From NCBI GenBank assembly GCA_041649295.1, contig JBAZNI010000001.1, positions 76,720-140,719 of the forward strand: a DNA stretch of 64,000 nucleotides, in the 5' to 3' direction. Below, piece after piece: positions 1,670 to 54,239 of this stretch. The stretch comes from Candidatus Pacearchaeota archaeon. GTDB taxonomy: Archaea > Nanobdellota > Nanobdellia > Pacearchaeales > GW2011-AR1. The notes below the pieces were generated by a model, which was given only the letters and a program-made list of their open reading frames with translations, was not told where the DNA came from and ran no database searches. The position numbers and the translations under genes are program-made. How positions within the stretch are numbered: the stretch's first letter is position 1; the number at the start of each line of letters is the position of its first letter.

Positions 1670-1801
1670 ATCTTTCCAAGGAAAAATATGTTTATTAATT
1701 TTTATGTTCTAGGATTAAATCTTATAAGATTAATATCCTCTTTAATATGAGAGAAAAAGATATGTTTTAAAGTATTATTGCTATTTAATATGGATTGATA
1801 A

Positions 1802-7244: not shown

Positions 7245-7361
7245 ATATTAACCTAACTAAATGACTATTTATTAAATCTATTGTTTTATAGATGTGCTGT
7301 TTGCTTAGAGGTATTTATAAATCACAACAAACCTTATTAATTCTCAAGCATTAAAAAAGTA

Positions 7362-14608: not shown

Positions 14609-14798
14609 GGATCCGTAGCTCAGTCTGGTCAGAGCACTGGACTCTTAAATGTAAGGACCTAGAGAACATACTTGTTCTCTGGTTCAGAGAATCTTTGATT
14701 CTCTTGAAACCCAGGTTCCTTAGCACTCAACCTCCTAAGATAATAACTTAAGGGCAAGAGAAATCCAGGTGTCGAGGGTTCAAATCCCTTCGGGTCCA
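14609..14798 (+). tRNA. tRNA-Lys(CUU) with a 115-nt intron at canonical position 37/38
   Basis: Hand-folded: acceptor GGATCCG/CGGGTCC, D-arm GCTC..GAGC, anticodon stem CTGGA/TCCAG with loop CTCTTAA, T-arm GAGGG-TTCAAAT-CCCTT, discriminator A. Intron 14648-14762 contains two perfect hairpins. Confidence 0.7.
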
Positions 14799-14975
14799 TT
14801 TTTAATCTGGGATTTGAACAGGTTCAAATCAGTTTTATTTGCAAAAATAAAACTTACCAAGAAGTTTCTTCTTGAGTACCTTCGGGTCCATTTTTAATCT
14901 GGGATTTGAACAGGTTCAAATCAGTTTTATTTGCAAAAATAAAACTTACCAAGAAGTTTCTTCTTGAGTACCTTC
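14787..14975. repeat. Tandem 92-bp direct repeat (2 copies plus 5 nt), each starting with the last 12 nt of tRNA-Lys and containing three perfect hairpins
   Basis: Copies at 14787-14878 and 14879-14970 are identical. Hairpins: CTGgGATTTGAAC-AG-GTTCAAATCAG; TTTTATTT-GCAA-AAATAAAA; CAAGAAG-TTT-CTTCTTG. Confidence 0.85.
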
Positions 14976-15075
14976 AACCTTCAGGTTCATATTATATTCC
15001 TGCCAAGCATTCATAGAGTATATTTACATAAATCAAATTAGAAAGTCTTTTAAATAGACCACTACAAGATTTAAA

Positions 15076-15270
15076 ATGGAAAAAAGAAAAATAGCTATGG
15101 CAAAGTATGATGGTAATGGTAATCCTGTAAATGCCTGTTATGGAGTTTACAAAATCGCAGATATTGAAATTTTTAGACATTCGGGTTTTGTTGATGTTGA
15201 TGAAAATTTAGCAAGAAAAATTAGTGAAGATTTAGCTGAAAGAATAAAAAATGGCGCATTAAAATATTAA
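15076..15270 (+). CDS. Small hypothetical protein
   Basis: 64-aa ORF with plausible composition; no family. Confidence 0.25.
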   Translation: MEKRKIAMAKYDGNGNPVNACYGVYKIADIEIFRHSGFVDVDENLARKISEDLAERIKNGALKY

Positions 15271-20795: not shown

Positions 20796-21620
20796 ATGTT
20801 AGACGAAGTTTTAAACACAGCAGAGGACTTAGTAATAATCGGCAAGTCAGGAACAAAAGGCAAATATGTTTTTGCTTTTCCACTAAAAGGAGAAGTTGCA
20901 AAACACTATTTTTATAAAACTCTTGCAGATGGAGAAGAAAGAAACGTAGCTGGTTTTAAAGAGTACTGGCAATTTGATGATAAAACAGGATTAATAACTG
21001 GCTCAAGCACTTTTTTAGCTTTAAGACTTGATGAAGCAGTTAGAGCAGATGGTTTTTGGATACCAGATATAGAAGAAGCATTATTTTTAGATAAAGAAAG
21101 AAGATTAACAAATGGAGTTTACAGAGATTATGGATTAGCTGTTTTTAATGATAGAGAACCTAATCAAGAAGTGGCAAATGAAATTATTAGTAAATCTGGG
21201 AATAGAGAACTGCCATTAATTATCCCTTTTAAAGATGTGGCTCATAGACTAGATGGAAATTTCCCTTATGGTGTTGCAATTTCTTTAGTTGATAATCCTT
21301 CTGGATTAAAATCAGGAGAACAAGCGCAGAAAATTTTAAGCAGGTTTAATTATGTTGGAGATTCTGGGGCGTGCAGGGTTTATCGCTACAGGTACAGCGG
21401 TTGGTTTGCTGGCTTGGACGGGTTGGGCGGCTCTGGCTCCGGTGGTCGGGGGGATTTTTTGTGTGGCGAAGCCACACGCGCTGATTTGTTAAGTGCCCAT
21501 GATGGTTTACTTAAAAGAAGATATGATGCTAAACTTTTTGAATTAGCAAAAGAAGAAAAAAGATTGTTAGCACAGCAGGATAAAGAACAAATGTCTTTCT
21601 TAGAACAAATTGGCATGTAA
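20796..21620 (+). CDS. DGR target (variable) protein, cytoplasmic, unknown fold
   Basis: 274 aa, no signal peptide. C-terminal segment encoded by 21366-21450 (ACRVYRYRYSGWFAGLDGLGGSGSGGR) is the variable repeat. Confidence 0.6.
   Translation: MLDEVLNTAEDLVIIGKSGTKGKYVFAFPLKGEVAKHYFYKTLADGEERNVAGFKEYWQFDDKTGLITGSSTFLALRLDEAVRADGFWIPDIEEALFLDKERRLTNGVYRDYGLAVFNDREPNQEVANEIISKSGNRELPLIIPFKDVAHRLDGNFPYGVAISLVDNPSGLKSGEQAQKILSRFNYVGDSGACRVYRYRYSGWFAGLDGLGGSGSGGRGDFLCGEATRADLLSAHDGLLKRRYDAKLFELAKEEKRLLAQQDKEQMSFLEQIGM
21366..21450 (+). repeat. DGR variable repeat (VR)
   Basis: 85-bp match to 21840-21924 with about 18 mismatches, all at positions where the other copy has A; non-A positions 100% identical. 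Confidence 0.75.
21461..21477 (+). other. GC hairpin (GTGTGGC-GAA-GCCACAC) immediately 3-prime of VR
   Basis: Perfect 7-bp stem with GAA loop, 10 nt after the VR; resembles the hairpin found after IMH in DGR targets. Confidence 0.5.
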
Positions 21621-21839
21621 ATTATATAAACCAATGTTTCTTTTTAAGATTCCTAGCCATTAAATGGCTGGGCCACACGCCAATTAATTAGCACATCATT
21701 TAGATTTATTTTAAGTCATGAAATTCAACTACGACAATTAGTAGTTATGATATGAATGCGAAACTTGAAGTAGTGGTGCTCTGTCGTTAAGACACTAGGA
21801 GGCTCCTTTTTAGGAGAGATTAATTGGCTACAAAGTTGG

Positions 21840-22014: not shown

Positions 22015-24678
22015 ATGGATTATTACACCTTGAAAAAAGAAGATGTTTTGAAAGAATTAAAAACCGGCTTTAACGGGCTTTCAAACACAGAAGCAAAAAA
22101 AAGAATAGTTCAATATGGCTCTAATGTAATTTTAAAACAAAAAACAATAAACCCATTTTTTTTATTTATCCAGCAGTTTAACAGCGCTTTAATCTATATA
22201 TTAATAATTGCTGCAGTTATTTCTTATATTTTTGGGCATATCGTTGATGTTTATATTATTGCAATAGTTATTTTAATTAATTCTCTTATTGGATTTTTAC
22301 AAAGCTATAGGGCGGAAAAATCAATTGATGCATTAAGAAAATTAATTGTGAGTTATGCAAAAGTTTACAGAGACGGAAAATTAACTAAACTGAAAGCAGA
22401 AGAATTAATTCCTGGAGATGTAATACTTTTAGAGCAGGGAGATAAAGTCCCTGCTGACTGCAGATTGCTGGAGCTAAAAAATCTTCAGACTGTCGAATCT
22501 TCTTTAACAGGAGAGAGTTTTCCTATAGATAAAAAAGACATAGTCCTCTCTCAGAAAACCCCTATTTCAGATATGGTTAATATGGTTTTTATGGGAACAT
22601 TTATTTCTAATGGCAGCTGCAAAGCAGTTGTTGTTGCAACAGATAATGAGACAGTTATAGGAAAATTAGCAAAAGAACTTCAAAGTGTTCAACATCCAAA
22701 ATCCCACTTTTCAAAAAAAACAAATATCTTAGCAAAACAGATGGCAGCTATTGCAGTTATAGGGGCATTAATCACTTTTTTGATAGGTTATTTTATTAGA
22801 GGTTTTGAATTTGCAGAGATTTTATTATTTACTATTGCCTCGCTAGTTTCTAGCATTCCAGAAGGATTGCCTGCAGTTCTTGCAATTGTTCTTGCAATTG
22901 GCGCATTTAGAATGTCAAAGAGAAACGCACTAATAAGGAAACTTCCTGCAACAGAAACTTTAGGAGTTGTTACAACAATTATAACTGATAAAACCGGAAC
23001 AATAACTGAAAATGTAATGTCTGTTGAAAAGATAATTATGCCCGGATATCCAGAGATTTCTATAACTGGCACTGCATGGATTCCAAAAGGGGAATTTATT
23101 CAGATAGGCAAGAGAATAAATCCGTCAGATAATCTTCAGCTAACAAAACTTTTAGCTATTTCAAAAATCTGCAATAATTCAAGGTTGCTAAAAGAAAGTG
23201 ATAATTATAGTATAATCGGGGACCCTACAGAAGCAGCACTTTTAGTATTAGGTGAAAAATCAAAAATGTCCTTAGATGAGGAAAAGATTGATGATATACC
23301 ATTTAACTCTGAATTAAAATACCGCGCTTCTTTAGTTGCATTAGTTAAAGAGGATAATATAAAGCAGATATATGTTGTTGGAGCTCCTGAAGAAATTATT
23401 AATTACTCCTCTCATTTTTTAAATAAAAATGCAAAAAAAATTCTTTCAAAAAAAGATATTTCAGAGATAATGGGGGGAATAGATAAATTGACTAAAGGGG
23501 GGATGAGAGTTCTTGCACTTGCTTATAAAAATACTTCTGCAGACATTAAATCAATTTCAAAAGAAAATATTAATGGATTAACTATCGTGGGAATAGTTGG
23601 AATAATGGACCCTCCGCGCCCAGAAGTTAAAGAAGCAATTGAGAGAGCTAAAAAAGCAGGGATAAGAGTGATAATGGCAACAGGAGACCATAAAGGAACT
23701 GCATTATCTGTTTCAAAAGAAATAGGCTTAGTAGATAATAATTATACTCAGGTTTTCACAGAATCAGAATTGAAATCTCTTTCAGAAAAAGAATTTTCAA
23801 AGGTTGTCATGACATATAATATTTTCGCGCGCCTTACTCCAGACATGAAATTAAGAATCGCTTCAGAATTACAGGCTCAGGGAGAAACAATTGCTATGAC
23901 TGGGGATGGTGTTAATGATGCTCTTGCTATTAAACGCGCAGATATAGGTATTGCAATGGGAGTAATAGGAACAGATGTAGCTCGTGAAAGCGCAGAGCTC
24001 GTTTTAGTAGATGATAATTTTGCGTCAATAATAAATGCAATTGAAGAAGGCAGGATTGTTTTTACAAATACAAGACAGGCAAGTTTTTTTCTTATAACTA
24101 CAAATTTCGCTGAAAACGCTACAATAATTCTTTCATTACTTGTAGGTATGCCTCTTCCACTTTTACCTACTCAAATATTATGGTTAAATCTAGTAACTGA
24201 TACTGGTTCTGGAGTTTCTCTTGCAGTTGAGCCCTCTTATAAAGATGTTTTGCACGAGAAACCAAGAAACCCTAAAGAAAACATTCTCTCAAAAGAAATA
24301 ATTCCATTTTTAGCAATTATGGTCGCTACAATGGTTGCTCTTACATATTTTATATTTAATTATTTCCTTGCATTTAGTGTTGAATCAGCAAGAACAGCTG
24401 CTTTTTCAGTTATGGCATTTACCCAGCTTTTTAATTTATTTAATATGCGTTCTCTGAAGAAATCCATTTTTAAAATAGGGTTTTTATCAAATAAATATAG
24501 TATATTTGCATTTGTTTTATCTGTACTTGCTGTTTTAGCTGTAATTTATATCCCTTTAATTCAAAAAGCATTCAACTTTGTTCCAATTGCATTTACAAGC
24601 ATGATTTTAATATTTATCCTTTCTTCATTGGTTCTTGTTTTTGGAGAAATCTACAAATTTGCGAAGAAGAAATTTTAA
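22015..24678 (+). CDS. P-type cation-transporting ATPase (P2-type)
   Basis: DKTGTITEN phosphorylation site, TGDGVNDALAIKRADIGIAMG hinge, 10 TM topology, 887 aa. Confidence 0.9.
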   Translation: MDYYTLKKEDVLKELKTGFNGLSNTEAKKRIVQYGSNVILKQKTINPFFLFIQQFNSALIYILIIAAVISYIFGHIVDVYIIAIVILINSLIGFLQSYRAEKSIDALRKLIVSYAKVYRDGKLTKLKAEELIPGDVILLEQGDKVPADCRLLELKNLQTVESSLTGESFPIDKKDIVLSQKTPISDMVNMVFMGTFISNGSCKAVVVATDNETVIGKLAKELQSVQHPKSHFSKKTNILAKQMAAIAVIGALITFLIGYFIRGFEFAEILLFTIASLVSSIPEGLPAVLAIVLAIGAFRMSKRNALIRKLPATETLGVVTTIITDKTGTITENVMSVEKIIMPGYPEISITGTAWIPKGEFIQIGKRINPSDNLQLTKLLAISKICNNSRLLKESDNYSIIGDPTEAALLVLGEKSKMSLDEEKIDDIPFNSELKYRASLVALVKEDNIKQIYVVGAPEEIINYSSHFLNKNAKKILSKKDISEIMGGIDKLTKGGMRVLALAYKNTSADIKSISKENINGLTIVGIVGIMDPPRPEVKEAIERAKKAGIRVIMATGDHKGTALSVSKEIGLVDNNYTQVFTESELKSLSEKEFSKVVMTYNIFARLTPDMKLRIASELQAQGETIAMTGDGVNDALAIKRADIGIAMGVIGTDVARESAELVLVDDNFASIINAIEEGRIVFTNTRQASFFLITTNFAENATIILSLLVGMPLPLLPTQILWLNLVTDTGSGVSLAVEPSYKDVLHEKPRNPKENILSKEIIPFLAIMVATMVALTYFIFNYFLAFSVESARTAAFSVMAFTQLFNLFNMRSLKKSIFKIGFLSNKYSIFAFVLSVLAVLAVIYIPLIQKAFNFVPIAFTSMILIFILSSLVLVFGEIYKFAKKKF

Positions 24679-29175: not shown

Positions 29176-29195
29176 AAACGAGTAGACATGGTTTC
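29176..29195. other. 3-prime arm of the pre-23S processing stem (complementary to 33667-33686)
   Basis: AACGAGTAGACATGGTTTCC is the exact reverse complement of GGAAACCATGTCTACTCGTT at 33667-33686; the two flank the 23S gene. Confidence 0.6.
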
Positions 29196-29490
29196 CTTAT
29201 AGATTTAAATTGTAGCTTTTAGTAACTGCAGACTGAACACGTCGCCGAAGCTTCGTGCTTACATCTCAGTTCTATCAACGTCCTCTTCTTGGACGGCCTA
29301 AATTGTCTCGTTTTGCGGATGGCTTCGTGCTTAGATGCTTTCAGCACTTATCCATACAATGCGTAGCTGCTCGGCATGCTCATAACAACCGATACACCAG
29401 AGGCATCCAAGTACCGTTCCTCTCGTACTAGATACTCGTTCCACTCAGACAATAACACACCTAGTAGATATCATACAAACTGTCTCACGT

Positions 29491-30254
29491 ATATTTTTCC
29501 ACTTTTTCAAGTTGGTATGGACTATACCTTCATCCTTACTTTTTGTAAGGAGATCGACGTCTTAGCCATCTTTTGCAAGATGACTCTTGAGCTAAACTCT
29601 CAGTCTCTACGGGGATAAAGATTTATTTACCACTTCATAAGTTAATTTTCTTTTCTTAGAATAGTTAAGTTCTTTGAACTTATCTACAAGCTTACAAATA
29701 TCTAGAAAATCTTCATCAGATTTTTTATTATCTAATTTATTTAAGATTTCTAAACCAAGTTTTACTTGTCTTTTCTTTAACTTTATATATGGTTGCAGAA
29801 GTATCAAAATTTTATGAACTTCTTTTGGTTCAACAATAGTATAATCGCTAATTCCTGTTTTACGATGACGAATACATCCATTCTCAAATATATTTTTAAG
29901 CCATTCTAAAATCTCTTTATATTCTGTTTTTTGATAAAATGCTACTGAGCTTCTTATCTGAAACTTTTGTTTATAATCTGGCCTTGAAACTATCTGAAAG
30001 AAAATGCTTCCATCTCCATCTAAGAATCCTGCGATATATGCAAGTGTTGTTTCATCTGCAAATCTCATCTTCCCTCGGTATTACCATGCTTTATCTGTTT
30101 TTAATCTTTTATTTTAATCCTAAAAGGACAAATAAGTTTAGGTTTCACCGATATGAGTCGATTTTATTTTTCATAACATTACTGCTATGCAACGCCGTGT
30201 TTTGTGTTAACTCCATATTTCTATATTCACATGGGTCTGCTGGTTTTGTGTTGA
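29491..30254 (-). other. 23S intron 1 (about 764 nt) in the AACGUC-GUGAGACAG region, E. coli about 2593; likely archaeal BHB-type
   Basis: Exon sequence GGGTTAAGAACGTC (30255 and up) resumes as GTGAGACAGTTTG at 29489 and down. Intron does not end in G and the 5-prime exon junction is ambiguous, arguing against group I. Confidence 0.7.
29607..30068 (-). CDS. LAGLIDADG homing endonuclease (intron 1 encoded)
   Basis: LAYIAGFLDGDGSIFFQ motif, 153 aa, fully inside the intron. Confidence 0.85.
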   Translation of the reverse strand: MRFADETTLAYIAGFLDGDGSIFFQIVSRPDYKQKFQIRSSVAFYQKTEYKEILEWLKNIFENGCIRHRKTGISDYTIVEPKEVHKILILLQPYIKLKKRQVKLGLEILNKLDNKKSDEDFLDICKLVDKFKELNYSKKRKLTYEVVNKSLSP

Positions 30255-30907
30255 CGTTCTTAACCCAGCTAACGATCCCTTTTAATATGTGAACTCCAGC
30301 ACCCTTGGTAGCTTATGCACTACCAGGTTAGGAAGAGCCGACAGCGATGTACCAAACCGCCCCGTCAATACGGACTATCGGGGGCGACAAGCCTGTTATC
30401 CTTGGGGTACCTTTTCTGTCACATTCGGAATCTATTAAGAATTCTCGAAGGTTCGCTAGAACCAGCTTTCGCTTCTGCATTTCTTGCTTTTCGAAATACA
30501 GTTAGATGAGCTTTTGCTCTTACACTCGACTCCAGATTTCCACCCTGGATGAGCTCATCTTTGTGCCCTGTAGATAGATTTTCTACAGGGTGCCGCCCCA
30601 GCCAAACTGCCCACAAGCTGCTGTTCTCTCAAGAGAGTAAGTGGTTCCTTAATTGGTAAGTAGTATTACACTGTTGCTCCACATCTACCGAAGTAAATGT
30701 CTCGACGCTCCTACCTATTCTATGTATCAATCAAAAAATCACAACAACATGCTGCAGTAAAGGTCCACAAGGTCTTAGCTTCCCACTAGGCATCACCGGC
30801 CTTTTCACCGGTTAATGATTTCAGAAGGTTCTGGTTAGGGACAGCGACCACCTCGTTAAACCATTCATGCAAGTCGCCATTCAGACGACAAGGTATTACG
30901 CTACCTT

Positions 30908-31742
30908 AAGCAAACTGTTACTTTTATAACCTTGAATTATTCAAGGCGGGTTTGCGCGAGCAAACCTCTATATGTCTCCATATAGATCGGACTATATCAT
31001 CACAAATTGCAATTTAGTTTTGTGTTTGGCGTATAGTCTCTGAGGATTCTAGAATTAAAATTATTTTGTTTTTTTAGTTTCATCTAAAAAACATTTTGAA
31101 AGCAATCTATCTAATGAATCATCAATTGCTATTTGTATGAATTCCTCTGGAGGAACTGCATAAAAATCCATCTTAGATTTACTCGATGTAAAAATAGGTA
31201 TTCCAGATTCAAACACTTTTGCTATTGGAATCCACAACCAAGTTTTATAATCAAATTCTTCATTTGATAAAACATACCAAATACTCAAACTAAATTTTCT
31301 TTGAATTGAAGAATAATTTTTTGTTTCTTCACTATCTATTGGATATGTTTTATATTCAGAACTTAATTTTTTGTATTTTACATCAACAAAAATAAATCCT
31401 AAATTTGGAATTAAAATTAAAAAATCAGGACGTTTTCCACTGAAATATTTTTTAAAAGCAAAAGATAATGTTTGAGTATCTTGTTGCAAATATAGATATG
31501 GTATATTATGTCTGTCTAGCCATTCTCTAAATTTTATTTCAGCTTCATTTCCTTTTTTCTTATTTTCTTCCTCTATCTGATTCATTTTAGATTAAGGTTG
31601 GCTTTACTTATAATTTTTTCTATTCTAGTCTTTCCTGCGGATTGTCCTTATCTTTTAAATTTTTACTATTGATAAACAATTAGTACCAAAAGCTTAACAG
31701 GATTTTCCCGCATACAGCCAAATTTAAACGCCCCCTAAATTG
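30908..31742 (-). other. 23S intron 2 (about 835 nt) between GUAACUAUGACCCU and AAGGUAGCG (domain IV, E. coli about 1923-1931)
   Basis: Exon landmarks are contiguous in E. coli but separated here by about 835 nt containing an ORF. Confidence 0.65.
31061..31585 (-). CDS. PD-(D/E)xK-fold nuclease, putative intron-encoded homing endonuclease (intron 2)
   Basis: RPDFLILIPN...FIFVDVKYKK gives the D...(D/E)xK motif arrangement; 174 aa, fully within the intron. Confidence 0.55.
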   Translation of the reverse strand: MNQIEEENKKKGNEAEIKFREWLDRHNIPYLYLQQDTQTLSFAFKKYFSGKRPDFLILIPNLGFIFVDVKYKKLSSEYKTYPIDSEETKNYSSIQRKFSLSIWYVLSNEEFDYKTWLWIPIAKVFESGIPIFTSSKSKMDFYAVPPEEFIQIAIDDSLDRLLSKCFLDETKKTK

Positions 31743-33666
31743 AGGGTCATAGTTACCCCCGCCGTTTGATGGGCATTAGCCCCCTTGAAAAGAGGTTTCA
31801 GACACCACCACTGGACAGGTCTCACCGATTATACAAGTCCTTTCGGATTAGCAATCGGCTACGTTTTTGATAAACAGTCGGGCAGTCCTTGTTACTTAGA
31901 TCTACATATGCCTTCTAATATCAAAGACAAATATAGACACCCTTTATACCGAAGATACAGGGCCAATGTGCCGAATTCCCTTAACCAGTTTATCCCTTAC
32001 AGGTCTTAGCCTTCTCAGCTAGGGCACCAGTGCTAGATCTAGGTACAGCTATGCACTTTCTATTTATAGAACTTTTCACTGGCTCCGGGAATCAGGGGTT
32101 TTAGTTAAGATATTCATTTGCATCTTAGCATTATGCTCAACAAATTTCTATCTTAAATTCGCTTTCGCGACTCCACTTATCCAGAAGCAATTCCATAACA
32201 TAACAAAAGCACAAAGTTCAGGAATATTAACCTGATTTCCATCGAAGTGCTCAATTAAGACACTCCTTAGGTACTGACTAACCCTTGGCTAACGTATATT
32301 GCCAAGGAAACCGTGCCCTTACGACCTTTTCCATTCTCAGGAAAATTTGATCCTACTCCAGCCAGGATTTTCATTGCTTTTTGTTCCACACACTCTTTCG
32401 AGAATGCTTCTGCACAAAAAGCACGCCAGTTTACCAGAACACTCATCTGAGTGCCTCTATGGTATCGGTAGTATGCTTAGCCCCGTCCATTTTCAGGGCC
32501 AAAAACCTCGATAGGTGAGCTGTTACGCTTTCTTTAAAGGGTGGCTGCTTCTGTGCCTACCTCCCCACTGTCTCAGGTTTAAGACACCTTTTGATACACT
32601 TAGCATACATTAGGGACCTTAACCATAGTCTCCCTTGTTCGGGTCTCGGAACAGGACCTTACGCCCTGCCCCCGTTTCTTATTTTAAGCAGTATACAAAT
32701 TCTGAGTTGGAAAGAGTTCCGTAGCATAATGCTCTGCAAACTCAATCCGTACTTTACCTCGTATACAAACAAAATAAGGCTATACTAAGGCATATTTCAA
32801 CTGGAACCAGCCATCGCCAGATTAGATAGGCTTTTCACCCCTAATCACAAGTCATCCAAGTACATGCACATAACACCGGTTCAGGCCTCCATCCTTATTT
32901 CTAAGAACTTCGCCTTGCTCATGATTAGATCATCTGGCTTCGGGTCAATCCTCTGTGACTAAACGCCCTTTCAGACTCGCTTTCGCTTTGGCTACCAAAT
33001 GTTAACCTCGCCACAAAAAATAACTCCCTGGCCCATTTTTCGAAACGTACGTTACAACACCTTAATGCCGTAACAAACCGTGACTGTTAGATTTCAAGTC
33101 TTTTAACTCTCTGCCAAGAGTACTTTTCAGCTTTCCCTCGCGGTACTAGTACGCTATCGGACTTAAGTTAATATTTAGGGTTCGGAATTAATCTTCCGGT
33201 ATTCAGACCTCCAATTCGGGAAGCCCTACTCTTTTAAGAAACACCATATATTTTTATCTACGGGACTATCACCCTGTATTGTGCAACTTTCCAGAAACTT
33301 CAATAAAAATACTTAGGCATTGATTCTCACCACATCTCTATCTCTCTTTCGAAAGAAGATTCAGTTTGCCCTCTACCCTTTTCACTCGCTGTTACTAAGG
33401 GTATCGCTTTTGCTTTCTTTTCCTGCAGGTACTAAGATGTTTCAATTCCCTGCGTATGCCTGCTTCTCAGCATTCTCCGAAGAGAATGTAGAATCACATT
33501 AGGAGATCCCAAGATCAAAGTTCGCATGCAACTCCCTTGGGCTTTTCGCAGCTTGCCACGTCCTTCATCGCAACTTAAGCCAAGCTATCTGTCTAACAGC
33601 CTGTAAAATCAAATCTAAAGATATCATTAATAGATTTCTCTATCAAGATACCTATGGGAAACCATG

Positions 33667-33686
33667 TCTACTCGTTTCATTGACTA
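33667..33686. other. 5-prime arm of the pre-23S processing stem
   Basis: See 29176-29195. Confidence 0.6.
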
Positions 33687-34034
33687 TGAAAACTACTAGT
33701 TTTAATTAACTAATAATTTTTTAATTTATGTCTCAACTCCCCCCTCTAAATTTTTAAAGAGGTTCATATATTTCGACTAATTTACCGTCGATAAATAGCA
33801 ACCAGAATTAATCCATAGAGCTCTCTAAATTTAGAAAACTCTTATATGAATATCTGCTGATTACCATTTGATAAGATAGTTAGAAAAAAGAGGTTTAAAA
33901 AGGTTGCTGTCGTGTTTCTCTGGTGCATTAAGTGGTCTTAAAATTAGAAGAAGGAGAAAGTTTTTTAAATAACAATATGGTATAATTTTATGAGGTGGTA
34001 GTGCCTCAGACACTAATTCTGAGAGAGTGAAAAA

Positions 34035-34406
34035 ATGAAAAGAAGAATAGAATTAACTGAAGTATTATCAAACAGCAATTACAACAATTGTACGATTCGT
34101 ATTTATAAAGAAGGAGAGGATTATCCTTGTTCTGCATCAGATGAATTTTGCTTATGGAAAATAGATAATCATTATGTATTACAAATGCACTTAAAGTTAA
34201 GTCGTAATGTTCAAGGTTATTTTGAATGTTTGCCCGAAGTTTTTGGAGTATCTGATACGCTTGATGAAGCTCAAAAAAGGTTGCATGAAAAATCTAAATT
34301 AACTGCAGAAAAATTAGCTGAATATCTTCGTTTATATGGAGATATAATAGAATTAGTTGATAATACAAAATTTGCACCTGAAAGATTGCCAAGAGGGGGA
34401 AAGTAG
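34035..34406 (+). CDS. Hypothetical protein inside the 16S-23S spacer
   Basis: 123-aa ORF preceded by a purine-rich RBS-like GAGAGAGTGA. Confidence 0.3.
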   Translation: MKRRIELTEVLSNSNYNNCTIRIYKEGEDYPCSASDEFCLWKIDNHYVLQMHLKLSRNVQGYFECLPEVFGVSDTLDEAQKRLHEKSKLTAEKLAEYLRLYGDIIELVDNTKFAPERLPRGGK

Positions 34407-34647
34407 AAATTCAATTAAAACTTTTATTAATCAATTCTAACCACCCATTCTCACTTTCAAATAAAATTATAATATATTTCATAACCCTTCATTAAATTCT
34501 ATTAAATAATTCTTTACATTATCACTTGAAGAAAATATCTTCTTTGCAGTATCCAAATCTATACTATTTAAAATATTCATAAAAGAGTTAAGGAATTACG
34601 ACTTTTAACCCTTTCTACCAACCGACAACGCACTAGAGAACTGTCGG

Positions 34648-34905
34648 TTAAAACATTTCAGTTGTTTTATCACAATTCATTTCACATCCAACGTAATACA
34701 TTAATGGTGCTATGAGAATTTTATCTGAAGATATAATTGCTCTGCTTATATCATAGTATCCTGCTTTTTCAGCAATTATATAACCCACCTTTCCTAAAGT
34801 AAAAGCTATTGTCACCCCATCTTTTTTTTCAGTAATTCTTTTTCTTGAAACTTCTATTAAATGTTTTCTTTTATTGCCGTCATCGTCGTGATTTGTATCT
34901 TTCAT
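34648..34905 (-). CDS. Small hypothetical protein (module A cargo)
   Basis: 85 aa; N-terminus MKDTNHDDDGN resembles that of 35140..35343. Confidence 0.3.
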   Translation of the reverse strand: MKDTNHDDDGNKRKHLIEVSRKRITEKKDGVTIAFTLGKVGYIIAEKAGYYDISRAIISSDKILIAPLMYYVGCEMNCDKTTEMF

Positions 34906-34944
34906 ATTATTTTAGAAATATTTGTGTTTAAAAAGGTTTATTTA

Positions 34945-35039
34945 TATGGACCTGCCGGCGGAAAAATTAGGAAAATTTTAGTGCCGTCAGTTCCTATCAA
35001 CTTCGCTTCGCTCAGTTGATTAAATGGACCTGCCGGGAA
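34945..35039. repeat. 95-bp repeat A bounded by the tRNA-Ala 3-prime-end mimic (GGACCTGCCGG at both ends)
   Basis: Identical to 35384-35478. Minus-sense reads TTCCCGGCAGGTCCA...hairpin CAACT-GAGCGAAGCGA-AGTTG...CCGGCAGGTCCATA. Confidence 0.8.
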
Positions 35040-35076
35040 TTGAACCCCGAGCTCCTCGTTGCAAACAAATATATCC
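35025..35076 (-). pseudogene. Degenerate tRNA-Ala 3-prime half (acceptor, T-arm and anticodon loop TTGCAA)
   Basis: GGACCTGCCGGGAATTGAACCCCGAGCTCCTCGTTGCAAAC is about 75% identical to the 3-prime half of the intact tRNA-Ala at 35572-35642. Confidence 0.45.
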
Positions 35077-35139
35077 TAAAGGTAACTTTTTTGTGATGAG
35101 ATAATGTTTCATTAAAGCCTTTTTAATTTACATCAATAA

Positions 35140-35343
35140 TTACCTGAATAATCCTCTCATTCTTCTATCATGCCTTCTTTTTTCATTTGGAGTTTCATAA
35201 TATACTCCTCCATCACCATGAAATTTCCTAGTACAATATGGACGAATATAAGGGGGAATTGGCACGCCTAATCTATCCCTAAATCTCAAATTATTATCAC
35301 TATCATCATCACTTTGCTCTCTGTTAGTATCAGTTTTTTCCAT
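35140..35343 (-). CDS. Small hypothetical protein (module B cargo)
   Basis: 67 aa, acidic N-terminus DDDSDNN. Confidence 0.3.
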   Translation of the reverse strand: MEKTDTNREQSDDDSDNNLRFRDRLGVPIPPYIRPYCTRKFHGDGGVYYETPNEKRRHDRRMRGLFR

Positions 35344-35383
35344 ATTGTTTATTCCAAATATCTTATTTATAAATCCTTTGTTT

Positions 35384-35478
35384 TATGGACCTGCCGGCGG
35401 AAAAATTAGGAAAATTTTAGTGCCGTCAGTTCCTATCAACTTCGCTTCGCTCAGTTGATTAAATGGACCTGCCGGGAA
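35384..35478. repeat. 95-bp repeat B (copy of 34945-35039)
   Basis: 100% identical over 95 bp. Confidence 0.8.
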
Positions 35479-35571
35479 CCAGAAACTCATAGAGTTTTGG
35501 CACAAAGAAATATTTTTTCTTTGATGTCTTCGATTTCCAGGCAGTATATTGAATTATAGAAATAATATATA

Positions 35572-35642
35572 TGGACCTGCCGGGAATCGAACCCAGACCC
35601 GTTCGTTGCAAACGAACAATTCTACCATTAGACTACAGGCCC
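35572..35642 (-). tRNA. tRNA-Ala(UGC) in the rRNA spacer
   Basis: Hand-folded: acceptor GGGCCTG/CAGGTCC with G3-U70, anticodon loop TTTGCAA, T-loop TTCGATT. Confidence 0.85.
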
Positions 35643-35678
35643 TTATTCTAAGAATAAATTTATTACTTTTAAATCTTT

Positions 35679-35924
35679 TTAATTCTTTTTAATTCTTTTA
35701 TGATACACTGAATAACCAATTGTCCCTGCCTTTAATAATTCCCCGCTTCCTGTCCAAAGGATTCCTTTTCCAACTAATTCTGTCTCTGGAAAATTATGTC
35801 CAATTGCATAAAACGCTAATCCCACGCATGATAAACTTGTTGCGCCATAAATAAAACTTTTTCCAGCATCACTGACTAAATCCCTTAACCCCGAAACATT
35901 TCTTAAATGATTCATTAAAAACAT
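35679..35924 (-). CDS. Small hypothetical protein
   Basis: 81-aa ORF between the MazG-like gene and tRNA-Ala. Confidence 0.3.
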   Translation of the reverse strand: MFLMNHLRNVSGLRDLVSDAGKSFIYGATSLSCVGLAFYAIGHNFPETELVGKGILWTGSGELLKAGTIGYSVYHKRIKKN

Positions 35925-36020
35925 AGTATATGTTTATTTATAAATATAGTGGACATAAAGTTCCACTATATTTTTTAGTGATTTGAAAAGTGTCTGTATA
36001 AGAGAATATGTTGGAAATTA

Positions 36021-36350
36021 TTAACGAGAGTCTCCATCTCCATGAAGAACACCTCTTTCTTTTCTAGATTTTAACTTTTCTATATTCTCTTCTGCAATTT
36101 CCTGAAGTGAAAAACCCAGTTCTGTAGATAATTGCGATAGATACCAAAGGATATCTCCTAATTCTTTTTTTAAATCGTTTATTCTTTTTTCTTTATCTTG
36201 ATTATTAGAATCCCTTAATATTTTTTTTAACTTTTCCATAACTTCTCCAGTTTCTCCACTCAATCCCAAAGAAGGATAAATCCAAGAAGGGTTTAATCTG
36301 GGATAAATCGCAGTTTCTTTTGATTTTTCTTGATATTCTTTAAAGTCCAT
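36021..36350 (-). CDS. MazG-like all-alpha nucleotide pyrophosphohydrolase
   Basis: LGLSGETGEV...ELGDILWYLSQL typical MazG/HisE-like EExxE/D motifs, 109 aa. Sits between 16S and tRNA-Ala. Confidence 0.55.
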   Translation of the reverse strand: MDFKEYQEKSKETAIYPRLNPSWIYPSLGLSGETGEVMEKLKKILRDSNNQDKEKRINDLKKELGDILWYLSQLSTELGFSLQEIAEENIEKLKSRKERGVLHGDGDSR

Positions 36351-36563
36351 AATAATTCATTGATTTTTAGAGTTATAAAACTTATCACACTTTGTGTAAG
36401 AAGATTTATGATAAAAAATGTAGCACAATTTATAAAAATTGTTGTATAGAAAATTATTCAAAATAATTTTTAGTGTTCTTAAATTAACACCTTAGCTATT
36501 TTGTTTAACTTACAGAATTAAAATGAAAAATGCAAATAGTTTCCAAGTGAATAATATAATTTA

Positions 36564-38001
36564 GGAGGTGATCCATCTGCAGGTTCCCCTACAGATACCT
36601 TGTGACGACTTAACCTACCTTGTCTTACAAAATTTCGAATCAAACGAGCCTCAACAATGCAAAACTCGGTTGGTTTGACGGGCAGTGTGTGCAAGGGGCA
36701 GGGACTTATTCACCGTTCACTGATAATGAACGATTACTACGGATTCCGGCGTCATGAAGCTGGGTTGCAAGCTTCAATCTGAACTAAGCTGGATATTTAA
36801 GATTGGCTCCTCTTTTCAGAGTTGCATCTCATTGAATGCAGCATTGACGCGCGCGTGTAGCCCAGGGGATTCGGGCAGTACTCACCTAACGTAGCCCGCA
36901 CCTTCCTCCCGGTTACCCGGGCAGTCTGTATACTGTTCTTCTTTGAAGTAAGTATACACACGGGTCTCGCCTGTTACCTGATTTAACAGGTCATCTCACG
37001 ACACAGGCTGACGTCGGCCATGCAACTCCTCTCAGCGTGTCAGGTAAGCCCTTCAGACTGACCTTCATTCTGCTGTCGCTCCTGGTGAGGTTCACGGTGT
37101 AGAATCTAATTGAACCGCACGCGTCACCCGTTGTAGTGCCCCCCCGCCAATTCCTTTAAGTTTCGGCCTTGCGACTATACTTCCCAGGTAGCACACTCTC
37201 CGGCTTCCCTACAGCACCGATGCCTCTCGAAGAGATACCGATGTTTAGTGTGCAGTGTTTACTGCTAGGACTACAAGGGTATCTAATCCTTTTCGCGACC
37301 CTAGCCTTCATCTCTCACTGTCAGATCTGTACTCGTAAGGTGCCTTCGCTATTGTTAGTCCATATAGGATCAACCCATTTTACCGGTACCCAATATGTAC
37401 TCCTTACGTCTTCCAGTCCCTAGCCATGCAGTATCTTTTGCGCGCCCTATATTTAAGATATAGGATTTTACAAAAGACTTACATAGCAAGCTACAGATGT
37501 TTTAGACCCAATAAATGTGGCTGCGACTTGAACCGCTGGTATTACCGCGGCGGCTGGCACCAGTCTTTCCCGGTCCTTATTCGCCAAACTTTTTACATTT
37601 AGCAAAAGTTTTTTCTTTTCGAAAAAACACTCTGGTTCACTTTGTCACGCTTTCGCGCATTGCAAAATATTCTTAACTGCTGCACCCCGTAGGGCTAGGA
37701 ATAGTGTCTCAGATTCCTTCTCAGGGCCTCTCCGCTAAGAGCCCTTACTGATCATCGGCTTGGTGGGCCATTGCCCCGCCAACAACCTAATCAGCCGCAG
37801 CCCCATCTTAAGGCTCGAATTTCAAAGATTATACATTCCAGTAATAATCTTCTATTGAGTATTGTTCTCAGTTTCCCGAGGGTATCCTCAACCTTAAGTA
37901 AGGTTAGCTACGTGTTACTGAGCAGTTCGCCCTCTTTCGAGAGACTTGCATGTCTAAACACAAACCAGATAGCCGCAGCCGCCAGCAGGATAAACTGGAA
38001 T
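36564..38001 (-). rRNA. 16S rRNA (archaeal, about 1438 nt, no intron)
   Basis: Reverse complement gives 5-prime ATTCCAGTTTATCCTGCTGGC, GTGCCAGCCGCCGCGGTAATAC, and 3-prime AAGTCGTCACAAGGTATCTGTAGGGGAACCTGCAGATGGATCACCTCCT. Confidence 0.9.
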
Positions 38002-38250
38002 TAACCAATTACTTGCTTGGTGCAATATAAACATAGTTTATAGTTAATATTAAGGAAAACATATTAACGACCTAATCCTCCGACGGTCTTAACATTACAA
38101 CTTGGTAACTATTTGCATACCTCATCCCATATTAAAAATATGGAACTCATTTTAGCGAAGATAAACTTCGCTCATTACGTAATGAGAGTAAACTCTCAAT
38201 ATGATAAAATTAAATTGATGAAATAGGTTTATAAAGCTTTGGGAAAATTT

Positions 38251-52096: not shown

Positions 52097-53338
52097 GTAA
52101 GTTAAATACTTATCGGCTATTTTTTTATACTATTTAATAAAAGTGTATTCCATCTATTCCCCTTAACTTCTATTCCACATCTTTCAGCAGGAGTAAGTTT
52201 ATCCTTTTCAGCTTTCTTTATAAAATTATGGAATACCTTAAATCCGTCTGCATAAGTTTGAGTTTCTGTAACTCCTCTTCTAACTTTTAACATTTCTTTT
52301 TGATGAGTGTGCAAGTTTTCTATTGCATTATTATTTGTTTCGTGTCTATGTCCTTTAATTGATGTAAATTTAATTTTCCTTTCTCTTCCAAAATTTCTAA
52401 ATGTATTCCTGCAACCATCTTCATAACCTTTGTAGCCATCTACAATAATCTGATTAGGCATTTTACCATTCTGTTTATATGCTTCTGTAAAAACCTTTTG
52501 TGCGTCTTTACTCTTTCTACTTCTACCAGAATTAACAGAAGCAAGTAAAAACTTAGTTTGATTATCCATACAATTCCAAACATAATCAAATTCAGAATTT
52601 TGTATTTTAGTCTTTCCTCTTTTAGTTAATACAAGTGTTTCATCAGCGTTCCAAACCCCAGAAGTTTTAGGAGTTAGAGTTTTAGAGTATTTTTCCATAA
52701 CTTCTGTAAATCTTAAAACCCATCTTCTTATTGTTTCGTGGTGTAATTTTAATCCATAAAATTGGTTAAATGTATCTGTAATATCTCTGTAAGATAAGCC
52801 CTTGTAATAACAATCCATAGCAAGACAAACTAATTTAGCATTTCCTTTAATGTATTTAATTGGTTCTAAAACAAATCTTTTTTTACAATCCTTACAGCCA
52901 AATCTTTGCTTATCTCCTGTTTTATCGTGCCTTACCCCTCTCTTGATTAGTTTTGTAGATTTGCAGTAAGGACAGCACTTTTCAGTTGAATTTTCTAAAA
53001 TTAACTCCATCTCTTGTTTTAGAGGTGTTTCTTCTATTTCATAAGCGTTCTTTAACTTTTCAAATAAAAGTATAGCTTTGATATGTTTGCAGTATAAACC
53101 TTTCCCCTTACATCTTAATTCAAAATCTTTGCAGTTACAAGAATAACTATCAAAATGCGTAACTTCATATTTTTTACTGCTATCAAATTGAGATGGAACT
53201 AAGTAAGTATTTTCATCTAAACATTCTGGTTTAGAATGTTCTAAGATTTGTTTTGCTCTTTGCTCTCTATTGTCTGCAAATTGTTTAATATCTTGTGTTG
53301 TTTCCATAGTATTATATAATACTTGTAGTATTTAAACA
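52097..53338. mobile_element. IS6-family insertion sequence (about 1.24 kb) with weak TIRs GTT(T)AAATACT
   Basis: Single DDE transposase ORF; imperfect inverted repeats at 52097-52110 and 53323-53338. Confidence 0.5.
52117..53307 (-). CDS. IS6-family DDE transposase with N-terminal SWIM and zinc-ribbon fingers
   Basis: CNCKDF..C...CKH SWIM; CPYCKS...CKDCKK ribbon; WNADETLV...YVWNCMD...QIIVDGYKGY (D, D, E block typical of IS6). Confidence 0.7.
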   Translation of the reverse strand: METTQDIKQFADNREQRAKQILEHSKPECLDENTYLVPSQFDSSKKYEVTHFDSYSCNCKDFELRCKGKGLYCKHIKAILLFEKLKNAYEIEETPLKQEMELILENSTEKCCPYCKSTKLIKRGVRHDKTGDKQRFGCKDCKKRFVLEPIKYIKGNAKLVCLAMDCYYKGLSYRDITDTFNQFYGLKLHHETIRRWVLRFTEVMEKYSKTLTPKTSGVWNADETLVLTKRGKTKIQNSEFDYVWNCMDNQTKFLLASVNSGRSRKSKDAQKVFTEAYKQNGKMPNQIIVDGYKGYEDGCRNTFRNFGRERKIKFTSIKGHRHETNNNAIENLHTHQKEMLKVRRGVTETQTYADGFKVFHNFIKKAEKDKLTPAERCGIEVKGNRWNTLLLNSIKK

Positions 53339-53915: not shown

Positions 53916-53980
53916 AATAATCAGCATTTCTAAAAATAGAAATTATTTAGTTGGAACTTAATAATTAGAATGCTGACAAT

Positions 53981-54068
53981 GAGGGCGTAGCTTAGCCAGT
54001 TAGAGCATTCGGCTGTTATCTGCAGGATAGACACCGAAATGTCGTGGGTTAAAATCCCACCGCCCTCA
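53981..54068 (+). tRNA. tRNA-Asn(GUU) with a 14-nt intron at 37/38
   Basis: Acceptor GAGGGCG/CGCCCTC, anticodon stem TTCGG/CCGAA, loop CTGTTA-[TCTGCAGGATAGAC]-A, T-arm GTGGG-TTAAAAT-CCCAC. Confidence 0.75.
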
Positions 54069-54239
54069 TTATCACTCACCATCGCGATGGATTGGTGAAT
54101 ATAAGTAGTTAGACTTAATAGAAATATTATTTAAACCTTTTGATTTTAGAGAATTATTACAGCCATTAAAGTAACCCAATAGTTTTTTCATTTCAACCTC
54201 TTATTACTATTAATATTATGATAACAATACTTATAAATG

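Follow-up and report, generated by a model that had tools for sequence, protein, structure and literature searches.

Folded single-strand recombination sites are known from the attC cassettes of integrons and from the attP(+) hairpin of CTX phage, which is used by Xer recombinases. The tRNA-C/D box sRNA dicistrons of Nanoarchaeum equitans, the tRNA-miRNA units of the herpesvirus MHV68 and mascRNA are released by tRNA-processing enzymes. Among archaeal integrated elements, PYG1 of Pyrococcus yayanosii carries the typical footprint, being flanked by 44-bp tRNA direct repeats (PMC9897764). The casposase of Aciduliprofundum boonei recognises the T-loop motif TCAAATC and generates a 14-bp duplication at the tRNA 3′ end (PMC6614799, PMC4779613), and tandem casposons share one such repeat (PMC4779613).

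We analysed a window of 64,000 nt from a Candidatus Pacearchaeota archaeon MAG (GCA_041649295.1, contig JBAZNI010000001.1, positions 76,720-140,719) that holds an array of tRNA-end mimics beside an intact tRNA-Ala(TGC) gene (35572-35642, minus strand; ARAGORN and Rfam, 57.1 bits). The core of the array is CCGGCAGGTCCA, the last 12 nt of this tRNA (positions 62-73, 35583..35572). This 12-mer, which includes A73, occurs at five sites against about 0.8 (0.77) expected, a count unchanged when two mismatches are allowed, while GGACCTGCCGG is found in five copies (34948, 35026, 35387, 35465 and 35573) against 0.18 expected, a number reached in 0/100 shuffles. The initial annotation had described repeats bounded on both sides by the complement of the tRNA-Ala 3′ end, and the five core copies, which bound both 78-nt modules, bear this out.

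All units of the array lie on the minus strand. Module X (108 nt, 35464..35571) follows the tRNA and comprises 33 nt, a conserved 63-nt two-hairpin segment (GGAAATCG..CTGGTT, in which CTG-CCTGG can pair with CCCGG-CAG, judging from the sequence) and a 13-nt core. It is followed by copy B of a 78-nt two-hairpin module (35386..35463), composed of HP1 (35463..35434) and HP2 (35433..35386), which ends in the core. Then come a 361-nt cassette (35025..35385) carrying ORF67, and copy A of the 78-nt module (34947..35024; HP1 35024..34995, HP2 34994..34947). Copies A and B show 100% identity over about 95-98 nt, a stretch that opens with TTCCCGGCAGGTCCA and closes with the second CCGGCAGGTCCA(TA); copy B scores 65.6 bits with the covariance model R1 and has a fold z of -3.9. 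Two near-identical modules, each a repeat plus a small ORF with an acidic N-terminus, had been proposed: the repeats are indeed identical, but the ORF parts are not alike, the 120 nt downstream of the two copies, ORF starts included, resembling each other at shuffle level (67/500 score as well). The array is not an assembly artefact, because the source contig was built with k=141, which exceeds the repeat length; in an independent assembly (Logan SRR8542065, unitigs L002 and L004) the same junctions were recovered, with breaks inside the 98-nt repeat only.

At the end of the ORF67 cassette stands a 45-nt copy of the 3′ half of tRNA-Ala (35069..35025; 84% identity) that begins at the anticodon loop and precedes repeat A on the rRNA strand; a degenerate copy of 40 nt next to repeat A had been noticed from the sequence. 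It is a classical integrase-type att remnant and, together with about 25 nt conserved upstream, is common to the window and to the related loci L208 and L143. Its length is the usual one for att repeats of archaeal integrases, such as the 44 bp of PMC9897764. Three features are shared with archaeal integrase footprints: an intact tRNA accompanied by a displaced partial copy that spans anticodon loop to 3′ end, intervening DNA that varies among relatives, and insertions piling up at one tRNA. Here, however, there is no integrase gene in the window, the interval spans only 0.5 kb, most repeats measure 12-21 nt instead of about 44, and the inserted units are structured modules of 55-250 bp derived from the tRNA. 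A second candidate for a degenerate tRNA half, at 35540..35479 (61%), was rejected, as it is 92% identical to a sequence of the relative L186 that has no tRNA similarity.

Comparison with relatives, proposed at the outset as a check, covered 16 related loci and revealed polymorphism in the presence and order of modules; the loci differ in module type, order, number and cargo. L203 has one 83-nt module more than L155, with the core exactly at its boundaries; the tRNA and upstream flank of the two loci are homologous. L186 reads tRNA, HP1HP2, E2, and L208 reads tRNA, E2′, HP1HP2, cargo, 3′ half; the slot preceding the 3′-half remnant holds ORF67 in the window and a 1.3-kb cargo of three ORFs, one of them a DUF2283 ORF, in L208. 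We tentatively read the locus as an accretion hot spot where small cassettes recombine site-specifically at tRNA 3′ ends, with a confidence a little short of even. We favour this reading because every module boundary is the same 12-mer, because identity between the window copies begins and ends at cores, and because the order, number and cargo of modules differ among relatives as described. The same 90-nt module lies at the tRNA-Ala(GGC) of L123 and the tRNA-Ala(TGC) of L155 despite different flanks, and the 78-nt unit is identical at the two window sites and at these different tRNA-Ala genes, which argues in the same direction. So do the unrelated module types (HP1HP2, X, E2, E3 and ORF-bearing cassettes), each terminated by the tRNA 3′ end, and the direct repeat of L054, which extends 9 nt beyond the tRNA end (21 nt in total). 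Precedents exist in the 44-bp tRNA repeats (PMC9897764) and the tandem casposons (PMC4779613).

Such an array could also be passive wreckage, left by old tandem tRNA duplications that decayed through internal deletions and are neither mobile nor functional. Tandem tRNA arrays are common and made up most of what a genome scan returned, and module E3 of L203 resembles a decayed 63-nt tRNA-Ala. Decay, however, does not produce the features seen here: every module retains its last 12-13 nt without a change whereas adjacent bases vary, stems covary, the same two A.G mismatches are kept across lineages and copies within the genome are 100% identical. This explanation is already disfavoured on these grounds, and we consider it improbable.

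A second array lies on the plus strand (14609..14989), where a tRNA-Lys(CTT) gene with a long intron (14609-14798; Rfam tRNA, 50.5 bits) precedes two tandem 92-nt modules (14799-14890 and 14891-14989). Each module ends with CCTTCGGGTCCA, the last 12 nt of that tRNA, and each unit is followed by a T5 run; the distal module is degenerate. The last 58 nt of the module share 77% identity with an Ala-linked module of L208 (61 aligned columns), and in both places the module agrees with the local tRNA in its T-loop-like segment and its terminal 12-mer. That one module family sits at tRNA-Lys and tRNA-Ala with local 12-mers again favours accretion. It would also suit miniature cut-and-paste or casposon-like derivatives, in which an enzyme reading the T-loop would make a fixed staggered cut and the tRNA end would be a target-site duplication, much as the A. 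boonei casposase does (PMC6614799, PMC4779613). Like the casposons of Aciduliprofundum boonei and Methanosarcina, the modules are specific to a tRNA 3′ end, which is duplicated (PMC6614799, PMC4779613), and a single shared repeat separates tandem units (PMC4779613). In contrast to casposons, the window holds neither Cas1 nor PolB, inspection of the module sequences disclosed no terminal inverted repeats, and the repeat lies wholly within the tRNA (62-73) whereas that of casposons straddles its end. Moreover, repeat length is not fixed (12, 13, 16, 18, 21 and 45 nt), the site before copy B has no T-loop upstream, and the 12-nt limit of the commonest HP2 type reflects a compensatory flip of pair 53:61 instead of a cut site. 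We regard such derivatives as very improbable.

The initial annotation had proposed serial integration into the tRNA-Ala 3′ end or a small tRNA-end-targeting element. Module polymorphism and the 45-nt remnant agree with this proposal, but the window lacks an integrase; the small tRNA-end-targeting element fits best, because the same unit occurs at several tRNA-Ala genes and a related module at tRNA-Lys with its own 12-mer. Domains of tyrosine or serine recombinases, Cas1 and reverse transcriptases were absent from all window ORFs of at least 120 aa (64 kb), the sole recombinase in the window being one unrelated DDE transposase. No protein family recurs near the arrays across the 16 loci, and no copies of the module were found on IMG/VR contigs or in phage or plasmid records. 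These results speak against accretion, as does module size, 55-108 bp being too small for double-stranded circles. The history of module X also counts against it, since this history cannot be cleanly reconstructed, no core following the L186 homologue. Module X is 92% identical to L186 414-477, compared with 88% between the two 16S genes.

The HP1+HP2 module is a conserved, covarying two-hairpin element found directly 3′ of tRNA-Ala genes (GGC, TGC and CGC) in Pacearchaeota, Nanoarchaeia and other low-GC archaeal MAGs. HP2 reproduces the acceptor/T-stem helix (12 bp) of its tRNA, whose sequence it tracks. It is colinear with tRNA-Ala, with the 5′ acceptor and T-stem 5′ strands GGAACUG+ACGGC compared to GGGCCUG+CUGGG, and its 3′ terminus is the discriminator A73; it departs from the host tRNA by A3-U70 in place of G3.U70 and by the two conserved A.G mismatches. 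All 12 distinct copies fold alike, 92.6% of cells are paired and five pairs are altered on both sides; this score was reached in 0/500 shuffles, and slid controls were 29-55% paired. At L037, the two HP2 paralogues are only 80% identical with compensatory differences, and both arms match the adjacent tRNA acceptor sequence (C6-G67) while the HP2-specific mismatches are retained. To our reading, a conserved hairpin imitating the top half of tRNA-Ala beside tRNA-Ala in many related archaea has not been described before; the structured and deeply conserved nature of the repeat had escaped the initial annotation.

Covariation supports the HP2 structure and thereby the accretion reading, yet the conservation of HP2 in deep lineages and the compensatory changes at L037 speak against it; they resemble the outcome of lasting purifying selection on structure more than that of recent mobility. 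The repeat could equally be a functional RNA. In this, the main rival reading, each module would be a small-RNA gene derived from the upstream tRNA in a "top-half" scaffold, keeping the acceptor and T-stem strands and carrying one or two payload hairpins. Transcribed together with the tRNA, it would be freed by RNase P and tRNase Z, perhaps gaining a CCA tail; its conserved 3′ end would be a processing signal, not a recombination site, and array size would change by unequal crossing-over at the 12-mer. Colinearity up to A73, strong covariation, a position directly after tRNA-Ala of all three anticodons and the L037 arms agree with this proposal, as do the stronger conservation of module X than of the 16S genes and an RNase P RNA gene in the window (Rfam). 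Co-transcription as RNA is plausible, since most loci have no terminator-like T-run between tRNA and HP2, a further point against accretion. On the other hand, identity blocks stop exactly at module boundaries, identical copies sit at unlinked tRNA genes, module order varies, the same ends serve ORF-bearing cassettes and the half-tRNA, and the L054 repeat passes the tRNA end. The T5 run, an archaeal terminator, after each tRNA-Lys unit and the lack of any Rfam family match also count against it, so that we consider small-RNA genes possible and on balance unlikely. As in tRNA-linked small-RNA units, a structured hairpin follows a tRNA or tRNA-like fold immediately on its 3′ side and could be cut at its ends by RNase P or tRNase Z, whereas HP2 lacks C/D boxes and copies the acceptor/T stem of its host tRNA.

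Under the accretion reading, the short cassettes downstream of tRNA-Ala(TGC), which terminate in copies of the tRNA's 3′ end (mostly 12-13 nt, once 45 nt), would be gained, lost and rearranged as these copies recombine site-specifically with one another, through a recombinase presumably encoded at another place in the genome. The 45-nt copy would be the 3′ half that was displaced when an element inserted at the anticodon loop in the conventional manner of integrases, and the 78-nt HP1+HP2 unit a non-autonomous member of a DPANN-wide family derived from tRNA-Ala itself. The folded HP2 mimic may act as a recombination structure comparable to attC or the CTX attP hairpin, and may also render read-through transcripts cleavable by tRNA-processing enzymes. 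In those systems too, short cassettes form arrays, each ending in an imperfect hairpin with a stem that mimics the double-stranded target and has conserved positions left unpaired. Here, by contrast, there is no GTTRRRY core and the target is a tRNA end; any link to IntI or Xer is hypothetical, and an action as single-stranded DNA is purely what we infer.

The array lies between the 16S and 23S rRNA genes, both on the minus strand. The 16S gene (36563..38001; Rfam RF01959, 1330.8 bits) is flanked by processing-stem halves at about 38118..38100 and 36548..36530 (18/19 positions complementary). The 23S gene with its stem covers 29176..33677 (Rfam archaeal LSU match 30200-33616), where 33677..33657 pairs with 29196..29176 as a perfect 21-nt complement; it is interrupted by ORF174 (31585..31061) and by a LAGLIDADG ORF (30068..29607; Pfam LAGLIDADG_1, 3.7e-10), after which comes the terminal LSU segment (29453..29302). 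Rfam and ARAGORN confirmed the limits of the expanded spacer of about 2.9 kb (33617-36562, 2,946 nt). Besides tRNA-Ala(TGC) and a MazG gene it contains four small ORFs, all of which had been assigned to the rRNA strand: three are (81, 67 and 85 aa), but that of 123 aa is on the opposite strand.

Unlinked rRNA genes were reportedly described in DPANN and Asgard archaea by Brewer et al. in 2020. In such genomes, as here, kilobases with protein genes part 16S from 23S and each rRNA has its own processing stem. The order 16S - tRNA-Ala - 23S and the common strand are retained here, in contrast to those genomes, and the locus therefore represents an intermediate state of unlinking. Uncoupling of 16S from 23S by the modules, as had been suggested, is a weak proposal, as the 920 nt separating 16S from tRNA-Ala, with MazG and ORF81, bear no relation to the modules and DPANN genomes commonly have unlinked rRNA genes (PMC8997704); in L186, other genes are already present after the 16S. 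With unrelated genes between the rRNAs, the wide gap is a separate, ordinary DPANN feature.

The MazG-family NTP pyrophosphohydrolase gene (36021..36350, minus strand, 109 aa) was recognised as such from the start and matches Pfam PF03819 (2.2e-12). By eye, a TATA-like TTTTATAA stands about 30 nt upstream of its ATG. Its 346 homologues are widespread across DPANN and CPR, and none of the closest (78-88% identity) adjoins rRNA or tRNA. ORF81 (35679..35924, minus strand) is small and hydrophobic, is a gene in the public annotation and gave no match in a Pfam search. ORF67 (35343..35140) and ORF85 (34648..34905, after copy A), both on the minus strand, are orphans with no relatives among 5.8 billion proteins, ORF85 matching itself only; a hairpin, AACCGACA..TGTCGGTT, comes after ORF85. 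ORF123 (34035..34406, plus strand, against the rRNA strand) has 15 weak homologues (E 3.7e-10 to 6e-4), 14 of them 79-132 aa long.

Rfam placed an archaeal 16S gene at 36563-38001 and a 23S gene at 30200-33616, both on the minus strand of the window (GC about 31%), along with one archaeal RNase P RNA and four tRNAs; these coordinates bear out the 16S-23S gap read by the initial annotation (33617-36562). tRNA-Ala(TGC) was located at 35572-35642 on the same strand by ARAGORN. Five copies of the sequence GGACCTGCCGG are present where 0.18 would be expected, and the 12-mer that includes the discriminator A, CCGGCAGGTCCA, corresponds to tRNA positions 62-73 and is called the core below. Read along the rRNA strand, tRNA-Ala is followed by a core-ended module of 108 nt (X), a core-ended 78-nt module of two hairpins (HP1+HP2, 35386..35463), a 361-nt cassette that carries ORF67 and ends in a 45-nt copy of the tRNA-Ala 3' half, a second HP1+HP2 (34947..35024) and ORF85. 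The two HP1+HP2 modules show 100% identity, flanking cores included, but no similarity beyond the core: over the 120 nt that follow, 67 of 500 shuffles score as well. Independent Logan unitigs reproduced the array junctions and broke only within the repeat. Counts, identity and unitigs together thus uphold the earlier observation of repeats bounded by copies of the tRNA-Ala 3' end, with three corrections. The spacer ORFs do not all lie on the rRNA strand, since ORF123, which has weak relatives only, is antisense to the rRNA genes. The small ORFs following the two repeats are not near-identical: ORF67 and ORF85 are mutually unrelated, a homology through their acidic N-termini was rejected as not significant, and neither has a relative among 5.8 billion proteins. 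Finally, a segment taken for a decayed tRNA half (35540..35479) is homologous to non-tRNA sequence at the related metagenomic locus L186. The MazG gene reported in the spacer is genuine and widespread. The misread segment is a 63-nt two-hairpin sequence, GGAAATCGAAGAC..GAGTTTCTGGTT, which forms the centre of module X (window 35479-35540, minus strand; L186 414-477) and is 92% identical between the two loci, vs 88% for their 16S genes; in L186 it comes after the last core and has no core behind it.

The 95-bp repeat folds into the two hairpins HP1 and HP2. In HP2 (arms GGAACTGACGGC and GCCGGCAGGTCC), GGAACUGACGGC pairs with GCCGGCAGGUCC, the latter being the T-stem and acceptor 3' strand of the tRNA itself. 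The helix has 12 stacked positions, made of 10 Watson-Crick pairs and two conserved A.G mismatches (4:69 and 49:65), and is followed by A73; HP2 therefore has the layout of a minihelix, in which a 7-bp acceptor stem is stacked on a 5-bp T stem and followed by discriminator base 73. Because its 5' arm is colinear with the 5' acceptor strand and the T-stem 5' strand of the tRNA, while its 3' arm is the tRNA's own, HP2 is a copy of the 'top half' of tRNA-Ala. It has no T-loop, and an internal loop with a small covarying hairpin stands in that place. All 12 distinct HP2 copies fold alike. In a model-based alignment 92.6% of the cells were paired and five pairs were changed on both sides; the covariation score was reached by none of 500 shuffles, and slid controls gave 29-55% pairing. 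A covariance model search recovered a sixteenth copy at L037, behind a second tRNA-Ala with the acceptor GGGCCCG/CGGGUCC. Its 3' arm is the end of that tRNA (CCCGACGGGUCC), C6 of its 5' arm pairs with G67, and the HP2-specific mismatches are retained. Since this copy follows the acceptor of its own tRNA in both arms, HP2 tracks the neighbouring tRNA. There is thus a conserved, covarying mimic of the tRNA top half linked to tRNA-Ala across DPANN lineages, a feature that the initial annotation had not seen. The G3.U70 of the tRNA is replaced at position 3:70 by A-U in 12 of 13 copies and by U.U in the remaining one. The G3.U70 pair is the established alanine identity rule for AlaRS, and from this rule HP2, which has no such pair, would not be expected to be charged by AlaRS. 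Rfam 15 returned only the tRNA and weak chance matches over 33600-36600 at E values up to 5, and no match on the modules of 13 related loci; full-text searches gave no description of a tRNA-end mimic beside DPANN tRNA-Ala. A C/D box sRNA was also considered and rejected: CUGA motifs are there, but the C box is missing and the spacing is wrong. In the HP1 loop or the tRNA-HP2 linker (window 35451..35439; L111, L037, L014 and L112), thus between HP2 and the end of the tRNA, there is a conserved purine-rich motif in tandem. It comes in the versions GAGCG-AAGCG-AAG, GAAUG-AAAUG-AAG and GAGCG-GAGCG-AGU and includes a mini-hairpin of two covarying base pairs capped by a GAA or GGA triloop (GCGAAGC, AUGAAAU, ACGAAGU).

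Scans of public genomes and metagenomes revealed the HP2 element directly after tRNA-Ala in other archaeal MAGs. The genome scan, which looked for two cores 40-70 nt apart, gave 118 loci, mostly bacterial tandem tRNA arrays, of which 8 archaeal ones were useful; about 77 of the 86 metagenome matches were coincidences in high-GC coding sequence. HP2 was present in genomes of Pacearchaeota (L033, L111) and Nanoarchaeia (L037), in three labelled Methanosarcinales (L014, L054, L112; GC 32-41%) and in seven metagenome contigs (L123, L143, L155, L186, L203, L207, L208), the linked tRNA-Ala having the anticodon GGC, TGC or CGC. Modules of quite different sequence (X and the types E2, E2' and E3) all end in the tRNA 3' end, and the comparison of relatives that had been called for revealed that their order and number differ. 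In L186 the tRNA is followed by HP1HP2 and a 214-nt E2; in L208 by a 252-nt E2', HP1HP2, a 1.3-kb cargo and a 3'-half remnant; in L203 by an 83-nt E3 and HP1HP2; and in L143 a 3'-half remnant precedes HP1HP2. L155 and L203 have in common their upstream flank (90%), the tRNA (94%) and HP1HP2, and differ by exactly E3. An identical 90-nt module is found at L123, beside tRNA-Ala GGC, and at L155, beside tRNA-Ala TGC, with different flanks.

The identity to the tRNA end extends over 12, 13, 16, 18, 21 or 45 nt, and the 12-nt limit of the commonest HP2 type arises from the 53:61 pair, which has flipped by compensatory change, so that a target-site duplication of fixed length at 62-73 was rejected. 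A fixed duplication of the casposon kind is likewise disfavoured. Casposons are characterised by a Cas1 casposase, PolB, terminal inverted repeats and a target duplication fixed at 14-15 bp; the window holds no such domains, the modules lack inverted repeats at their ends, and the repeat ranges from 12 to 45 nt. Integrons are resembled in the cassette-plus-hairpin layout only: the attC palindrome carries RYYYAAC and GTTRRRY boxes and is served by IntI, whereas the HP2 arms have no R boxes and the window has no integrase. At L054 (7634-7720, minus strand) the direct repeat around HP2 runs 9 nt past the tRNA end (CCGGCAGGTCCATTGTTCATG, twice) and looks like a fresh insertion-type duplication. 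Other kinds of module follow an intron-bearing tRNA in L096, a 58%-GC archaeal MAG (7245-7400, minus strand; at least three in tandem), and in L099, a Woesearchaeota MAG (1757-1848, plus strand); their last 18-20 nt are those of the tRNA 3' end and take in part of the T-loop.

The window contains a second array of the same kind, at 14609-14989 on the plus strand. It begins with a tRNA-Lys(CTT) with a long intron (14609-14798), found by Rfam and missed by ARAGORN, followed by two tandem 92-nt units that each end in the last 12 nt of that tRNA (CCTTCGGGTCCA). Over its last 58 nt the unit shares 77% identity with the end of E2', the Ala-linked module of L208, and the T-loop-like segment fits the local tRNA, being TTCAAAT at Lys and TTCGATT at Ala. 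Also within the unit is GGAUUUG, which copies the tRNA's 5' acceptor strand (GGAUCCG) apart from two C-to-U changes. No tRNA-end copies accompany the tRNA-Phe and tRNA-Asn of the window. A small ORF (15076-15270) comes after the tRNA-Lys array.

We favour repeated site-specific recombination at the tRNA-end copies, which would be catalysed by an enzyme encoded elsewhere; HP1+HP2 would be a non-autonomous cassette with a hairpin that mimics its target. This reading is favoured because identity blocks stop exactly at the cores and identical copies occur at unlinked sites, because the order differs in relatives and one family is found at two tRNAs, each time with the local ends, and because the L054 repeat passes the tRNA end and a classical 45-nt remnant is present. 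That remnant (35069..35025) is 84% identical to tRNA-Ala (35642..35572), as in a tRNA-flanked integrated element, and may be compared with the 44-bp repeats of PMC9897764; tandem casposons with a single repeat in common (PMC4779613) offer a further parallel to the favoured reading. Together with about 25 nt upstream it is conserved in the window, L208 and L143, and the content between the repeats differs: ORF67 within 361 nt in the window vs three ORFs, a DUF2283 protein among them, within 1.3 kb in L208. The interpretation offered by the initial annotation is partly right, its serial integrations into the tRNA-Ala end gaining from the polymorphism and the remnant. Against the recombination reading, no Phage_integrase or recombinase domain was found in the spacer ORFs or in window ORFs of at least 120 aa, nor any integrase in the L208 cargo. 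All-against-all BLASTP of the ORFs of 16 loci gave no recurrent neighbour enzyme, and IMG/VR, phage and plasmid records, collections with few DPANN elements, gave no true match to a free attP form (a viral contig, L214, was a chance match within a coding region). The modules are moreover too small for double-stranded circles, and a functional RNA would account equally well for their deep conservation with compensatory change. The main rival takes this last point up and sees the modules as tRNA-scaffolded small RNAs freed by RNase P and tRNase Z; the recombination and small-RNA readings are not mutually exclusive. Passive decay is disfavoured.

Other tRNA-related candidates were rejected. A bulge-helix-bulge intron and a split or permuted tRNA were dismissed, since neither a D arm nor a 5' half comes after the 3' half and there is no sign of BHB geometry. 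A primer-binding site was discarded, no CCA lying between A73 and the module, and with it a tRNA-primed retroelement: the Rfam RT-16 motif of the window (21652-21836, plus strand, 106 bits) lies between an ORF with no Pfam match (20796-21620) and a P-type ATPase gene (22015-24678), and no reverse transcriptase adjoins it. A DDE transposase (52117-53307, minus strand; Pfam DDE_Tnp_IS240 8.6e-11, IS66-like 6.6e-9) has no tRNA-end copy downstream of its neighbour, an intron-bearing tRNA-Asn about 670 nt away (53980-54069, plus strand).

Mobile elements are poorly known in DPANN archaea, whose genomes are tiny. Tentatively, HP2-type modules might form an unrecognised class of miniature archaeal elements that carry the 'top half' of the host tRNA as a folded imitation of their own insertion site, co-evolve with the tRNA and spread or are maintained at tRNA 3' ends across DPANN, serving as a tRNA-targeting hairpin recombination site or as a natural tRNA scaffold for a small RNA; we regard this as possible rather than probable. 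If this is true, the 'genomic tag' idea for tRNA-like 3' ends would have a living analogue here. Mobile cassettes would point to a recombination system aimed at tRNA 3' ends via a folded copy of the target, and RNAs to a new family of tRNA-derived small RNAs freed by tRNA-processing enzymes. Either way, the modules explain partial tRNA matches and assembly breaks near DPANN tRNA and rRNA genes, and are a concrete substrate for RNase P, tRNase Z, the CCA-adding enzyme and archaeal recombinases.

The order and strand of 16S, tRNA-Ala and 23S are those of a linked operon, but in place of a short spacer without protein genes there are 2,946 nt with five ORFs, of which one is antisense. The 16S and 23S genes each have their own processing stem, MazG homologues at 78-88% identity lie among ordinary genes and away from any rRNA or tRNA, in L186 other genes separate 16S from tRNA-Ala, and rRNA genes are commonly unlinked in DPANN (PMC8997704). 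A wide gap is therefore normal in this group, and the modules that were suggested to have uncoupled 16S from 23S are not its main cause. From the antisense ORF123 and a promoter-like TTTAAAAATT upstream of the 23S stem, the two genes are predicted not to share a transcript. The 3' half of the 21-bp 23S stem, at 29196..29176, implies that the true 23S gene (29176-33677 with its stem, minus strand) reaches past a LAGLIDADG ORF (30068..29607) that precedes the terminal LSU segment (29453..29302), and puts its 3' end near 29215, not 30200. The gene is interrupted twice, the other insertion being ORF174 (31585..31061, minus strand, no Pfam match). The DNA of ORF174 is 82.5% identical to an ORF just 3' of the L186 16S gene, and ORF174 is probably a mobile ORF.
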